Shown: piece after piece, positions 9,676-13,907 of the stretch
Position numbering within the stretch: position 1 is the first letter of the stretch
Layout of the letters: each line of letters opens with the position of its first letter
Program-made: the position numbers and the translations under genes
Source of the DNA: an uncultured Clostridia bacterium
GTDB taxonomy: Bacteria > Bacillota_I > Bacilli_A > RF39 > UBA660
DNA: 32,000 nucleotides
Assembly: GCA_947643225.1 (NCBI GenBank)
Contig: CANRVH010000006.1
Span: 18,330-50,329, forward strand
Direction of reading: 5' to 3'
The notes under the pieces: model-generated
Seen by the model: the letters and a program-made list of their open reading frames with translations, nothing else
Database searches by the model: none
Told to the model about the DNA's origin: nothing

Positions 9676-10691
9676 AATTCCTCCTTTTTACTTCTAAGTT
9701 GACCGCAAGCTGCACTAATTTTAGAACCAAACTCTCGTCTTATAGTTACATTTATATTATTTTTCTTTAGTATATCATAAAATTTTGTTATTTGAAATAC
9801 TTCACTTCGTCTAAAGGAAATATTTTCCGTTTCATTATATGGTATTATGTTTACATAACAGTTGATTCCTTTTAATAGGGTGCTAAGTTCTTTTGCACAA
9901 GTCATACTATCGTTTATGTCTCTTAGCATGATGTATTCAAACGTTACTCGTCTATTTGTTTTATCACTATATTTTTTTACTGCTTTTATCATTTCTTCTA
10001 TAGGATAAACTTGATTAATAGGCATAATTTTATTTCTTATTTCATTATTTGGGGCATGTAGACTAATCGCTAAATTTACTTGATAGGGAAAATTCATAAA
10101 TTCATAAATTTTAGGTACAATTCCACAAGTTGAAATTGTTATATGCCTACTTCCTATCTGCAGTCCAAAGGGATTATTGATGATTTTGACAAAATTCATT
10201 ACTGCTTCATAGTTGTCAAAAGGTTCGCCTATCCCCATAATAACTACATGGCTAATCTTACTACCTAAATTTTCTTCTACTAAAAGAAGTTGAGTGACCA
10301 TTTCACTTGTTGTTAAGTTACGGACTTTTTTTCTTCTTCCTGATTCACAAAATTTACATCCCATATTACATCCTACTTGGGAAGAGACGCAAATACTATT
10401 ACCATAATCATGTTTCATTAAAACTGCTTCAATATGTTTATGATCTTTTAATCTAAATAAATATTTATTAACGTCCTTATCCTTTTCAACTTTTACTATT
10501 TTAACAGTTTCTAAGGGTAAGTCTTCTTTTAATTTATTGATTATCTCTTTTTTGATATCCGTGACTTCATCATATGAGGTTATCTTTTTTTGATAAAGCC
10601 ATTTATATAGTTGTTTTGCTTTGAATTTTTTTTCATTTATATTTAAGAAATATTCTTCTAACTCTTCTAAATTTTTGTCGTAAATATTCAT
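9672..10691 (-). CDS. rlmN: 23S rRNA/tRNA (adenine-C2)-methyltransferase RlmN, radical SAM
   Basis: CNMGCKFC radical-SAM triad, GIGEP, and the C-terminal ACGQL catalytic Cys. The ORF-track start at 10763 adds 24 hydrophobic residues with no homology logic. I prefer the ATG at 10689-10691 (MNIYDKNLEELE...). Confidence 0.88.
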   Translation of the reverse strand: MNIYDKNLEELEEYFLNINEKKFKAKQLYKWLYQKKITSYDEVTDIKKEIINKLKEDLPLETVKIVKVEKDKDVNKYLFRLKDHKHIEAVLMKHDYGNSICVSSQVGCNMGCKFCESGRRKKVRNLTTSEMVTQLLLVEENLGSKISHVVIMGIGEPFDNYEAVMNFVKIINNPFGLQIGSRHITISTCGIVPKIYEFMNFPYQVNLAISLHAPNNEIRNKIMPINQVYPIEEMIKAVKKYSDKTNRRVTFEYIMLRDINDSMTCAKELSTLLKGINCYVNIIPYNETENISFRRSEVFQITKFYDILKKNNINVTIRREFGSKISAACGQLRSKKEEL

Positions 10692-11180
10692 TTTCTCACA
10701 TCCAATATTATTATATATTAAAATGAAGAAAAACTCCATGCTAACAAAAAAGAAATTAATCATCCTCTCTTAATTCCTTGGACATTCATGTTATATATAA
10801 TTTTGGTATTAATTATTTTGATATTTCATTAAAATAATTTAACATATTATAGGAAAATATATAAAAAACAAGAATTAGTTGCAAACAAATTTATTGATAA
10901 TGGTCCATAATATACTTCCTATCAGATAACTTTAATATAAGCCTTTGCAGAAATTAAAATTATATCATTGGTGTCTGTTATTAATAAAGGGATTACTAAT
11001 AATCATACGCTATGTGCAAATTTGTCTATTATTTTAATTTGATGAGTCGAAATTTTTATCTTACAAATCCATATTTAATTTTTTTATAAAATAATTCTTA
11101 CTTTTTACGAAAATGCTAAATGCGTTTTTTACCTCTTCGTATTTTTTATTTATTATCTTTTAGATAATTTCTCCTATTCG

Positions 11181-12110
11181 CTATTTTGTTACTTCAACAA
11201 CCGCCCGCGCACCATTCTCCATGTACACGAAGTCATTTCCTAACCTACCTACCATTATATACCAAGCGTAGTTCGAGTAAGTGGAATAAGCCGAAGACGA
11301 CCAATATACACTTGCTGAAGAATCATTCTCTGTTCCTCCATTATTTGTTGAATTATTTAAATAGTTATACATCCATATTGGACATGATTGACTACTATTA
11401 TTACATCCAAAACTTGCTGCCTCCTGTAATGTGATTAATCTTGCTTTTGCTGTTCTACTTCCTAATGTATAGGTATTTTTTGTACATGAATTATAAGCAC
11501 TACATCCTGTATTTGTTCCTAAGGTATAGATTTGATTATTAACGTTACTCCATCCTGATGTTGCATTCTCTAGTGATGTTAATACTGTTAATGGCCCTTT
11601 CTTGTTATTTCCAAATGTTCCGTATTCTGCGTTTGTTCCTCCTGCTGCTATATAATCTTCTTTACTTATCCATGATGTTTCATTAATTGTATTTCTTTGA
11701 CTCTGCATCGTTATTTTACTTCCATTATCTCTCATGACATGGAAATTTACTATATCTGTATCATTTACTCTATATCTAATAATTGTTCCTACTGGACAAC
11801 TATTTTCTGTTTTATTCTTATAACACATTGTTTTCTGACATGTTTCTTCCTTTCCTGTTACACAATAATTACTCGCTCCACTTGTTTGATTATATGTATA
11901 GGCTTCTACAAAATTTCCTATTCTTACTTTATTATATAGTTCATCAATCGCTCCTTGGACATTCGTTGAAGAAAGTCCTGAATTAACATTAGAATAAGTA
12001 ATATAACTACCCATAATTGTAGTTACTGCATGCACTCCACCACTTGCTAATATTAATCCTATTATAATTCCTAATAATACTTTAACGTTTTCTTTCCATA
12101 ATCTCTTCAT
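11181..12110 (-). CDS. Cys-rich secreted or membrane-anchored surface protein with a lectin-like C-terminal module
   Basis: 309 aa. N-terminal anchor LLGIIIGLILASGGVHA, a conserved SNVNSGLSSTNVQGAIDELYNKV box, several Cys pairs, and a C-terminal ...ARLITLQEA...YWSSS...AWYIMV...ENGARAVVEVTK pattern of the DUF1566/CLec-like type. A degraded paralogue lies at 2252-3129. Confidence 0.7.
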   Translation of the reverse strand: MKRLWKENVKVLLGIIIGLILASGGVHAVTTIMGSYITYSNVNSGLSSTNVQGAIDELYNKVRIGNFVEAYTYNQTSGASNYCVTGKEETCQKTMCYKNKTENSCPVGTIIRYRVNDTDIVNFHVMRDNGSKITMQSQRNTINETSWISKEDYIAAGGTNAEYGTFGNNKKGPLTVLTSLENATSGWSNVNNQIYTLGTNTGCSAYNSCTKNTYTLGSRTAKARLITLQEAASFGCNNSSQSCPIWMYNYLNNSTNNGGTENDSSASVYWSSSAYSTYSNYAWYIMVGRLGNDFVYMENGARAVVEVTK

Positions 12111-12177
12111 CTTAATATTCTTCCTATCTTATTTTACAGTCGATTTTTGTCGTATATTCTTACCTTTATTTTCTTCC

Positions 12178-12211
12178 ATTATAAACCAACCCCCCCCCCC
12201 CACTTTGTCAA
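12178..12211 (-). promoter_or_regulatory. sigmaA-type promoter with a G12 tract inside the -35/-10 spacer; candidate phase-variable promoter of the 11181-12110 gene
   Basis: The minus strand reads TTGACA (12211-12206), a 22-nt spacer (aagt + G12 + ttggtt), then TATAAT (12183-12178). Both hexamers are consensus. The spacer is about 4-5 nt longer than optimal and consists mostly of the homopolymer. Confidence 0.5.
12190..12201 (-). repeat. homopolymeric G12 tract (C12 on the plus strand)
   Basis: Twelve consecutive C at 12190-12201 in a very AT-rich genome. Also forms the 3' arm of the hairpin CCTCCACTT-gaca-AAGTGGGGG downstream of the 12239-12991 gene. Confidence 0.95.
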
Positions 12212-12238
12212 GTGGAGGAGAAGGGTTGTTTACTTATT

Positions 12239-12991
12239 TTAATATTCTTTTTCGATTTTTTCGATTTCTCCAAATCTAGAGTAATTAATGATTAATTTAT
12301 ATTCATAAATGGATTGATCATAATAATGGAAATAATCGGTTAAATCCATATCTATTTCTGCTAAATCTCCATTTTTATCGAGTTTAGCGGTTATGGTATT
12401 TCCTTTACTATCAATATCTGTTTCTATTTGATCTAAATTTCTTAGTAATGTCGTGGTACTAATTTCATATGTATAATCTTCCTGTGAACTGTTGATATAT
12501 TCTGTTTTCGAAATATATGTTCCATGAATAAACATTTTTTTTAGATTAGTTGCTTCTAATATTTTACTAAATTCCATGGGATTTATGCTTTTTTCATAAA
12601 GTAGGGAATTCGTATTTTTTAGATAATAATTATTTCCTTGACTGTAGTAATTGATAGAAGGAGTTCCACTTTTTATAAATTTTTGATTTTCTTTATTTCT
12701 ATCCCCTTCATAAATTATTGTTTTGTTATTTTTAATTATTTTATAATTAAAATGATAATTATTATCTTCTATTTTTTTTAAATTAAAACTGATTCCATAG
12801 CCTGAATTTTTTTTTGATAATACCTGATTAGTATTTGTGAGGCTACCTCTTAATAAGATTACAATAAAAACAAAGAAGATAATGTAAAAACCAAAGAAAA
12901 GGATTTGTTTTAACTCTGGATTATCTTCGAACATTTCTTGAACCTTATTTTTTTCTCTCATGTCTTTTGGAATTTTACTCATATTTTTCAC
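12239..12991 (-). CDS. hypothetical bitopic membrane protein
   Basis: 250 aa with one TM helix (ILFFGFYIIFFVFIVILL) and an Asn/Tyr-rich extracytoplasmic domain. Overlaps the fmt stop, so the start is uncertain (alternative Met codons at 12982 and 12961). Confidence 0.55.
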   Translation of the reverse strand: MKNMSKIPKDMREKNKVQEMFEDNPELKQILFFGFYIIFFVFIVILLRGSLTNTNQVLSKKNSGYGISFNLKKIEDNNYHFNYKIIKNNKTIIYEGDRNKENQKFIKSGTPSINYYSQGNNYYLKNTNSLLYEKSINPMEFSKILEATNLKKMFIHGTYISKTEYINSSQEDYTYEISTTTLLRNLDQIETDIDSKGNTITAKLDKNGDLAEIDMDLTDYFHYYDQSIYEYKLIINYSRFGEIEKIEKEY

Positions 12992-13907
12992 CCACTAGAT
13001 TATCTTTACAACCATTTAGATAATCTTTTGCTTTCATTCTTTTTTTTCCTTCTGGTTTGATATCTGTAATCACATAAATATAGTCTTTTGTACTAACTCC
13101 TATTCCTTCTTTGTATAATTTAGTAATTATACCTGTTTCTTGATTTGATTTTTCTGTTGTTTGGTACCCATCATATATTTTTATCTTTTTATCATTTAAT
13201 TTTACAAAACAACCAGGAGTTGGCGATAGGCCTCTTACTTGATTAAAAACCTCTTTACAACTTTTATTAAAATTAAGATGTTCATCACTTGGAGTAATAT
13301 TATAGGCATAAGTTACTTTATTTTGATCCTGTTTTATTCTTTTATTTGTTCCCTTTATAATATTTGGCAGTGTTTCTAGTAATAAATCTTTTCCTAACTG
13401 ACTTAATTTATTCGTTAGTATTTCTAAGTTATCTTCTTGATTTATTGGAATTTCTTTTTGCGTAATGATATCTCCACTATCCATTAATTTATCCATATAC
13501 ATAATAGTAATACCTGTTACTTTTTCCCCTGTTATTATTGCTCTTTGAATAGGAGCTCCTCCTCTAAATTTAGGAAGAAGTGAGGCATGGACATTGATAC
13601 AACCATATTTTGGATCATTTAAAATTTCTTCTGGTATAATTTGTCCATAGGCACAGGTTATTACTATATCTGGTTTTGCATCTAGCACTTTTTGGTATTC
13701 TTTTTTTATTTTTTCTGGTTTTTCTATTGGAATATTATTTTTTTCTGCACATAAAGAAACTGGGCTAGGCGCTAATTCCTGTTTTCTACCTACTTTTTTA
13801 TCTGGTTGACTAACTACTAATACTACTTCATAATCTTGATGATTGATCAAGCTTTCTAAAATAGGAACACTAAACTCAGGAGTTCCCATAAAAACGATTC
13901 TTACCAT
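12975..13907 (-). CDS. fmt: methionyl-tRNA formyltransferase
   Basis: 310 aa with RIVFMGTPEF, INVHASLLPKFRGGAPIQ (the HxSLLPxxRG motif) and a C-terminal OB-like domain. Confidence 0.92.
   Translation of the reverse strand: MVRIVFMGTPEFSVPILESLINHQDYEVVLVVSQPDKKVGRKQELAPSPVSLCAEKNNIPIEKPEKIKKEYQKVLDAKPDIVITCAYGQIIPEEILNDPKYGCINVHASLLPKFRGGAPIQRAIITGEKVTGITIMYMDKLMDSGDIITQKEIPINQEDNLEILTNKLSQLGKDLLLETLPNIIKGTNKRIKQDQNKVTYAYNITPSDEHLNFNKSCKEVFNQVRGLSPTPGCFVKLNDKKIKIYDGYQTTEKSNQETGIITKLYKEGIGVSTKDYIYVITDIKPEGKKRMKAKDYLNGCKDNLVGEKYE

Follow-up and report, generated by a model that had tools for sequence, protein, structure and literature searches.

The window, by which we mean the whole 32,000 nt stretch of DNA analysed, has a G + C content of 28.1% and is asymmetric between its strands: 25 of its 27 ORFs of at least 120 aa lie on the minus strand, and the plus strand carries 13661 T versus 9337 A and 5224 C versus 3778 G. 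A tRNA scan and an Rfam search of the 32-kb window found no tRNA gene and no Rfam family, and comparison of the window with phage DNA gave no match. The locus described here lies on the minus strand, between a gene for a protein of 247 aa and a gene for a Cys-rich protein of 309 aa, and has the following features.

12239..12982, minus strand: upstream gene, 247 aa, no assigned function (ATG at 12982; a GTG start gives 250 aa), from the ORF list
12181..12233, minus strand: RNA hairpin, intrinsic-terminator-like, 3′ of the upstream gene, from scan and MFE fold
12206..12211, minus strand: putative -35 hexamer TTGACA, in and adjoining the hairpin loop (perfect consensus; homologous TTGACA in the paralogues L001 and L090)
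12184..12205, minus strand: putative promoter spacer of 22 nt, AAGT + G12 + TTGGTT (4 + 12 + 6); 20 nt in contig L002
12190..12201, minus strand: G12 homopolymer (C12 on the plus strand), candidate hypermutable repeat, from direct reading and run count
12178..12183, minus strand: putative -10 hexamer TATAAT (perfect consensus)
12111..12177, minus strand: predicted 5′ UTR with an RBS-like AGGAAG at 12125..12120, from the sequence
11181..12110, minus strand: gene for the 309-aa Cys-rich protein, predicted exported, from the ORF, homologue alignment and AF2 model
10780..12230, minus strand: lineage-specific segment of ~1.45 kb (hairpin/promoter, 309-aa gene and 400 nt), absent in the syntenic fmt-247aa-rlmN loci of the nearest relatives

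Read along the minus strand, the tract and its flanks are CAACCCTTCTCCTCCACTTGACAAAGTGGGGGGGGGGGGTTGGTTTATAATGG, and the promoter region is CAACCCTTCTCCTCCAC-TTGACA-AAGT-G12-TTGGTT-TATAAT-GG. An earlier note on this DNA had described the G12 as the sole G/C homopolymer of an AT-rich window, set between TTGACA and TATAAT 22 nt apart. Both points held: no G/C run other than G12 exceeds a length of 5 in the 32 kb, and the coordinates of the two hexamers were confirmed on the minus strand. GGGGGGG has 6 overlapping matches in the window versus 0.24 expected, with as many in 0 of 100 shuffles, and a C12 would arise from composition alone at an estimated ~1e-5 per window. A perfect TTGACA/TATAAT pair 14-24 nt apart was found once in the window; such a pair alone is not significant (0.29 expected, and at least one in 25 of 100 shuffles). 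The ATG of the 309-aa ORF lies 79 nt downstream of the tract. A rival start site within 12111-12170, raised in the same note, found no counterpart, as a scan of the minus strand from the tract to the ATG revealed no alternative promoter with a 16-18-nt spacer. A G-quadruplex was ruled out, there being one G-run alone and no four-run arrangement.

The 5′ UTR contains a block, ACGACA-AAAATCGACTG-TAAAAT (12131-12153, minus strand), which is conserved in L090 (L090:2436-2460), a 55%-identical paralogue from another species. MAFFT aligned this block of the window to the poly-G promoter of L001, TTGACA-AAACGACT-G8-TGG-TAGAAT. The spacer of the ACGACA...TGTAAAAT block is just 11 nt. To judge by its sequence, the block resembles a relic, a second copy of the promoter in which only one G of the G-run is left.

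The 309-aa product had been called a Cys-rich, lectin-like surface protein, and the structural predictions are compatible with this. Its N-terminus is a predicted hydrophobic helix ending in a signal-peptidase-like, AXA-like site (VHA/V, and VYA/A in relatives); neither a lipobox Cys nor an LPXTG motif was present in the protein. Alignment of the family revealed 9 invariant Cys and a conserved N-terminal motif, SGLSSTNVQGAIDELY (residues ~44-60). In the Pfam search the protein gave nothing above threshold, its sole sub-threshold match being Neprosin_AP, and the PDB search by sequence gave nothing significant. The AlphaFold (AF2) model is confident, with a pLDDT of 86.9 and a pTM of 0.78. In BFVD, a viral fold library, it matched DUF6273, DUF1566 and receptor-binding proteins, modestly (best E = 7.5e-6, for DUF6273; TM ~0.33-0.39), and its fold matches in the PDB were the Thomasclavelia ramosa IgA peptidase (E = 4e-3), the C-terminal domain of Legionella Lcl (E = 0.12) and CTLD structures (E > 0.4). 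The Pfam models do not support membership of DUF6273 or DUF1566, and among the 120 homologues listed PF19789 was found in P0030 only. The predicted fold of the body (residues 65-309) resembles phage DUF6273/receptor-binding proteins and the T. ramosa IgA peptidase; taken with SGLSSTNVQGAIDELY, this suggests that the bacterial surface family is connected with phage or host-binding modules. It is reasonable, on the model, to regard the product as exported, Cys-rich and C-type-lectin-like.

The transcript of the upstream gene would fold into a hairpin that begins 6 nt past the stop codon of the 247-aa gene. That the tract forms the 3′ arm of a hairpin after the upstream gene had been noticed before, and this was borne out with a longer helix than described: 19 pairs by the consensus scan (12228..12187) and 24 pairs by the MFE fold (12233..12181), with the loop GACA. 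The MFE is -36.3 kcal/mol (z = -7.1). The 5′ arm holds exactly 12 pyrimidines, CCCTTCTCCTCC (12225..12214), and the 3′ arm is AAGT + G12 + TTG; the pyrimidine run and G12 form 7 G-C and 5 G-U pairs. A T-rich tail, GTTTATAAT, with the U-rich portion GUUUAUAAU, follows on the 3′ side. All elements that define an intrinsic terminator (stable G + C-rich stem-loop, U-rich tract, location 3′ of a stop codon) are present in the sequence, and no other terminator-like site was found in 10500-13500. Folded as DNA, the same structure is far weaker (-15 kcal/mol), and because the RNA fold is so much stronger the hairpin probably acts in RNA, in termination of the upstream fmt-247aa transcript. Refolding with G4-G14 placed the optimum exactly at G12, with values at or below -21.9 kcal/mol over G7-G14; as stability is kept over this range, insulation would survive a change in tract length. 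The element looks like a terminator that would insulate the 309-aa gene from fmt-247aa read-through.

The tract might then be the G-rich arm of a Rho-independent terminator and nothing else, with coincidental hexamers and a 309-aa gene transcribed from elsewhere. The 12 pyrimidines of the 5′ arm, which make the stem perfect at G12, favour this explanation, as do the G-U wobbles, which imply selection at the RNA level, the energy and T-rich tail of the only terminator-like site in 3 kb, its start so close to the upstream stop codon, and a hexamer pair that is not significant by itself. However, the minus-strand scan from the tract to the ATG found no other promoter-like site with a 16-18-nt spacer, and the relatives speak against it more broadly.

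Homologues of the 309-aa protein number 337; nearly all are unnamed, and in many cases several share a contig. A scan of species-representative genomes gave 80 loci in 17 MAGs, labelled uncultured Bacilli, Tenericutes or Erysipelotrichaceae and derived from human, mouse, rabbit and rumen hosts; 10 of the 17 MAGs bear tracts. The family HMM detected 132 family ORFs in the 440 kb of family loci (28.4% GC), which contain 90 G/C runs of at least 7 (89 unique), versus ~1 expected from composition (an estimate). Every one of the 90 reads as G on the family gene's strand, with no C run among them. A family gene follows within 250 nt for 77 of the 90, and 77 of the 108 family genes with an assessable start have a tract no more than 250 nt upstream; the remaining tracts mostly precede other signal-peptide proteins or sit at locus ends. 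Among the paralogues the shortest tract is G7, the longest G12 and the commonest length G9, and most tracts lie between -35-like and -10-like hexamers, with spacers mainly of 17-19 nt. A scan of JGI metagenomes for the family added 3 further tract-bearing promoters, the matches there being mostly long paralogues whose starts lie beyond the 600-nt flank. The promoters of the relatives take the following forms, in which numbers between elements are nucleotides.

MAG CANRPE: TTGCAA-10-G9-TATAAT, spacer 19 nt (52 tracts of this form among 57 G9 tracts)
L017: TTGACA-9-G8-TATACT, spacer 17 nt
L021: TTGACA-9-G10-TATACT, spacer 19 nt
L032 and L056: TTGACA-9-G9-TAGAAT, spacer 18 nt
L069: TTGACA-9-G10-TAGAAT, spacer 19 nt
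L014, L094 and L095: TTGATT-9/10-G9-(0/1)-TATAAT, spacer 19 nt
L056, other genes: TTGACC-1-G9-9-TATAAT, spacer 19 nt, preceding non-family genes
MAG CASRZP: TTAACT-0/1-G10/11-6/8-TAAAAT-like, spacer 18 nt
L001, the closest paralogue (61%): TTGACA-8-G8-3-TAGAAT, spacer 19 nt

Most relatives lack a C-rich arm complementary to the poly-G and have a distinct AT-rich terminator directly upstream of the promoter, an order that matches the terminator-then-switch layout of the locus described here. Each CANRPE tract of the form listed comes after its own terminator, ATTACAC-TTCG-GTGTAAT-T6, and is followed by GGTGA and ATG. L001, like the window, has a C-rich 5′ arm that pairs with the tract as a hairpin (z = -3.3). 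Across some 10 MAGs it is the downstream family gene, and no upstream gene, that the tract accompanies, and syntenic loci that lack the family gene have no poly-G. We consider it unlikely that the tract serves as a terminator arm only.

The host MAG of the CANRPE tracts (rabbit, Lapin-018 bin61; L025-L083) carries family genes in tandem with near-identical units of terminator, TTGCAA-10-G9-TATAAT, 5′ UTR and GGTGA, for example at L025:2947, 3965, 5060 and 6156. Poly-G was also observed in promoter-like contexts before unrelated signal-peptide or membrane-anchored proteins (L056:5306 and 6498; L066:2356; L075:4584; L076:2179), which indicates that the repeat system reaches beyond one protein family.

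In MAG CAKPLP, from the Hadza human gut, the tract takes a different position: AGGAGG-N4-ATG, with a strong RBS, opens an 8-codon leader that runs into it (L004:2957-3000, L006:2943-3000 and L007:2943-3000). The leader ORF of L004 has G7 and would be fused in frame to the full protein at G5 or G8; that of L006 has G9, with in-frame fusion at G8 or G11, and that of L007 has G11, with fusion at G10 or G13. None of the 3 is in frame in the assemblies. L009, L010, L013, L019 and L054 share this leader cassette, which is followed there by 77 nt with a separate RBS and ATG. By its sequence the CAKPLP leader tract is a putative translational version of the switch, an independent use within the same family.

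Interrupted G-rich sequence occupies the homologous position in L005 (GATGAGGGGTGGT, ~2900-2930), L116 (GGGGAAGGG, ~540-575) and L090 (GGACGTAGCGGTAGG, L090:2389-2425). These are candidates for 'phase-locked', stabilised alleles. The spacers of L090 and L116 are 19-20 nt, so the ON length is not safely taken from a 17 ± 1 rule.

Hexamer sequences and the place of the tract in the spacer vary from one of these promoters to another, yet each has a G-run, which points to selection for such a run between the hexamers and not to simple inheritance. The G-run could instead be a fixed promoter element and no switch: a binding site for a family-specific regulator, a structural, A-form-like spacer, or part of the palindrome CCACTT-GACA-AAGTGG, which might act as an operator at the -35. 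This palindrome does recur in L001 and L090, the overall spacer length is the same in interrupted tracts, and 57 of 57 CANRPE tracts are G9. Yet the length varies, from G7 to G12 among paralogues and between G12 and G10 at the window locus; homopolymers of at least 9 are intrinsically unstable (PMC3401435); and the tract changes its place in the spacer and in CAKPLP lies in a coding leader, a mobility that fits a need for repeat instability and not a defined binding site. A fixed element is similarly improbable in our judgement. As for the 57 unique CANRPE tracts, their uniform G9 reflects either homogenisation, through assembly or gene conversion, or a mutational equilibrium at G9; assembly collapse, gene conversion or a non-switching role could each produce it.

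The earlier note had proposed a comparison of tract length in raw reads or across isolates; at this locus two assemblies could be compared. Contig L002 (ENA ERZ14651017), an independent 1471-bp contig of the same locus, was found via the 247-aa protein read from its ATG start; look-ups with the exact 309-aa, 250-aa and fmt proteins, and with P0001 and P0006, gave no contig. Across the 1471 nt, 2 substitutions and a 2-nt deletion in the tract (G10 versus G12) are the only differences from the window; coverage of L002 is only ~2x, and G10 could be a homopolymer sequencing error. The difference is consistent with tract instability, short of proof. Contig L003, from an fmt relative, ends before the tract, and a search of JGI metagenomes with the tract flanks and a variable gap as pattern gave no match.

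That the tract itself is a sequencing or assembly artefact, for example from the no-signal G calls of two-colour Illumina chemistry, is effectively refuted. Four contigs do begin exactly with the G-run (L023:1-12, L031:1-9, L049:1-9 and L054:1-9), as such an artefact might predict. However, the tract of the window is internal to its contig with unique sequence on either side, it was recovered in a second assembly, and independent studies (human, mouse, rabbit, rumen, squirrel) all show homologous tracts, always on the sense strand and at the same promoter position. Other contigs start 20 nt upstream, and scaffold L016 has an N10 gap (~2950) where a poly-G promoter is expected; MAG assemblies of this lineage appear, from these ends, to break at tracts, an indirect hint of instability.

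The surroundings of the locus are conserved in relatives L085 and L086, whose 247-aa protein is 78% identical, and L087-L089 (66%), with the order priA-398aa-fmt-247aa-rlmN-PP2C-PknB. None of these five syntenic loci carries a family gene or a G/C run as long as 6, and where they have a terminator it is an ordinary one. In L087 just 3 nt separate the 247-aa gene from rlmN (L087:3314-3318). Homology between L085 and the window ends at ~12231 and resumes at ~10779 (L085:3745-3935), which marks the hairpin/promoter and 309-aa gene as a lineage-specific segment. By this sequence comparison the family gene and its switch are a presumptive lineage-specific insertion of ~1.45 kb into a conserved priA-PknB cluster.

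We think it likely that G12 is a contingency repeat in the spacer of a sigma-A-type promoter, and that slippage alters the spacing and hence transcription of the lectin-like gene. The spacer optimum of sigma-70/sigma-A promoters is 17 ± 1 nt. Slipped-strand mispairing at replication would add or remove G's in the tract, and each gain or loss would shift the distance and rotational phase between TTGACA and TATAAT and so change transcription. With the 22-nt spacer of G12 or the 20-nt spacer of G10, the predicted state of the promoter is OFF or weak; tracts shortened to ~G7-G9 (spacers of 17-19 nt) would switch it ON, and the canonical optimum lies 3-5 G's away. Both alleles of the window locus exceed the spacers of most relatives (17-19 nt). 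In the upstream fmt-247aa transcript, tract and 12-pyrimidine run would form the terminator-like hairpin over G7-G14 and so insulate the switch. We infer that slippage is frequent and reversible, that these are the ON lengths and that the hairpin terminates transcription. The optimum of the hairpin exactly at G12 hints that the window copy may be held at this length for its terminator role.

The locus has several of the features by which switching simple sequence repeats are recognised. G12 exceeds the repeat length of about 7-8 or more; the length is polymorphic, in G12/G10 (the latter from the ~2x contig) and in the G7-G12 of the paralogues; and the product is predicted from its hydrophobic helix and AXA-like site to be exported. 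An exported lectin-like protein is the usual type of cargo for such switches.

Promoters of this geometry are known from several bacteria. In Neisseria, the length of a spacer tract sets the spacing and hence the transcription level of the surface-protein genes porA (poly-G), fetA/frpB and opc (poly-C) (PMC5320596, citing van der Ende 1995 and Carson 2000). The likeness is a G/C homopolymer between the -35 and -10 of a surface-protein gene. The window differs in its host, a Gram-positive-type, 28%-GC uncultured gut bacterium, in having a large paralogous family instead of a single gene, and in a tract that is also the stem of an upstream terminator, and length-dependent expression is here only proposed. 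In Mycoplasma hyorhinis, each gene of the vlp lipoproteins has a poly-A in its promoter spacer and switches independently. The vlp system shares with ours a surface-protein multigene family, a low-GC, reduced-genome, Mollicutes-like organism and one spacer homopolymer per gene; unlike vlp, the family described here has poly-G and not poly-A, its proteins are not lipoproteins and are unrelated in sequence, and it is known from sequence alone. In Bordetella fim2/fim3 and Haemophilus hifA/B, repeat length sets the promoter geometry of fimbrial or surface genes. The Bordetella C-stretch sets the distance to the site of an activator (BvgA), whereas no activator is evident at the window; in Haemophilus the repeat is a TA dinucleotide of divergent promoters, whereas no divergent gene is evident here. 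Campylobacter jejuni is likewise AT-rich; its G/C runs of at least 7 are rare and concentrated in surface-related genes, and their modal length, G9, has been attributed to a length-dependent insertion/deletion bias (PMC3401435). The modal G9 is shared by the MAGs related to the window, one of which has intragenic frameshift tracts; the C. jejuni tracts are mostly intragenic, whereas those described here lie mostly in promoter spacers and with one protein family.

No relevant paper on the protein family, or on phase variation among RF39 or other uncultured gut Mollicutes/Bacilli, came up in the literature search. The type of mechanism is known; as far as the literature search shows, the lineage, the protein family, the number of gated paralogues, the dual transcriptional and translational use and the role as terminator stem are undescribed. 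Repeat-driven phase variation is textbook knowledge for a few cultured pathogens and essentially uncharted in uncultured gut commensals. We give about even chances to the wider reading that uncultured low-GC gut Bacilli carry Mycoplasma-style antigenic variation, with up to at least 57 poly-G-gated lectin-like genes per genome, the tract lying in the promoter or in a leader, and with the repeat of the window doubling as a terminator stem. If true, this would be an undescribed 'phasome' in abundant commensals, with a bearing on evasion of IgA and phage and on MAG assembly quality. Were the tracts to switch, dozens of independently gated lectin-like proteins would diversify the surface and could also serve niche adhesion, and the fragmentation of MAGs at family genes in this lineage would be explained.

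The tracts also affect annotation. In the public gene calls P0015, P0067 and P0090 the start codon is the TTG of the -35 or a GTG within the poly-G; gene callers that start inside the promoter tract produce spurious N-terminal extensions containing GGG(G), and such read-through of promoters yields false N-termini in the family.
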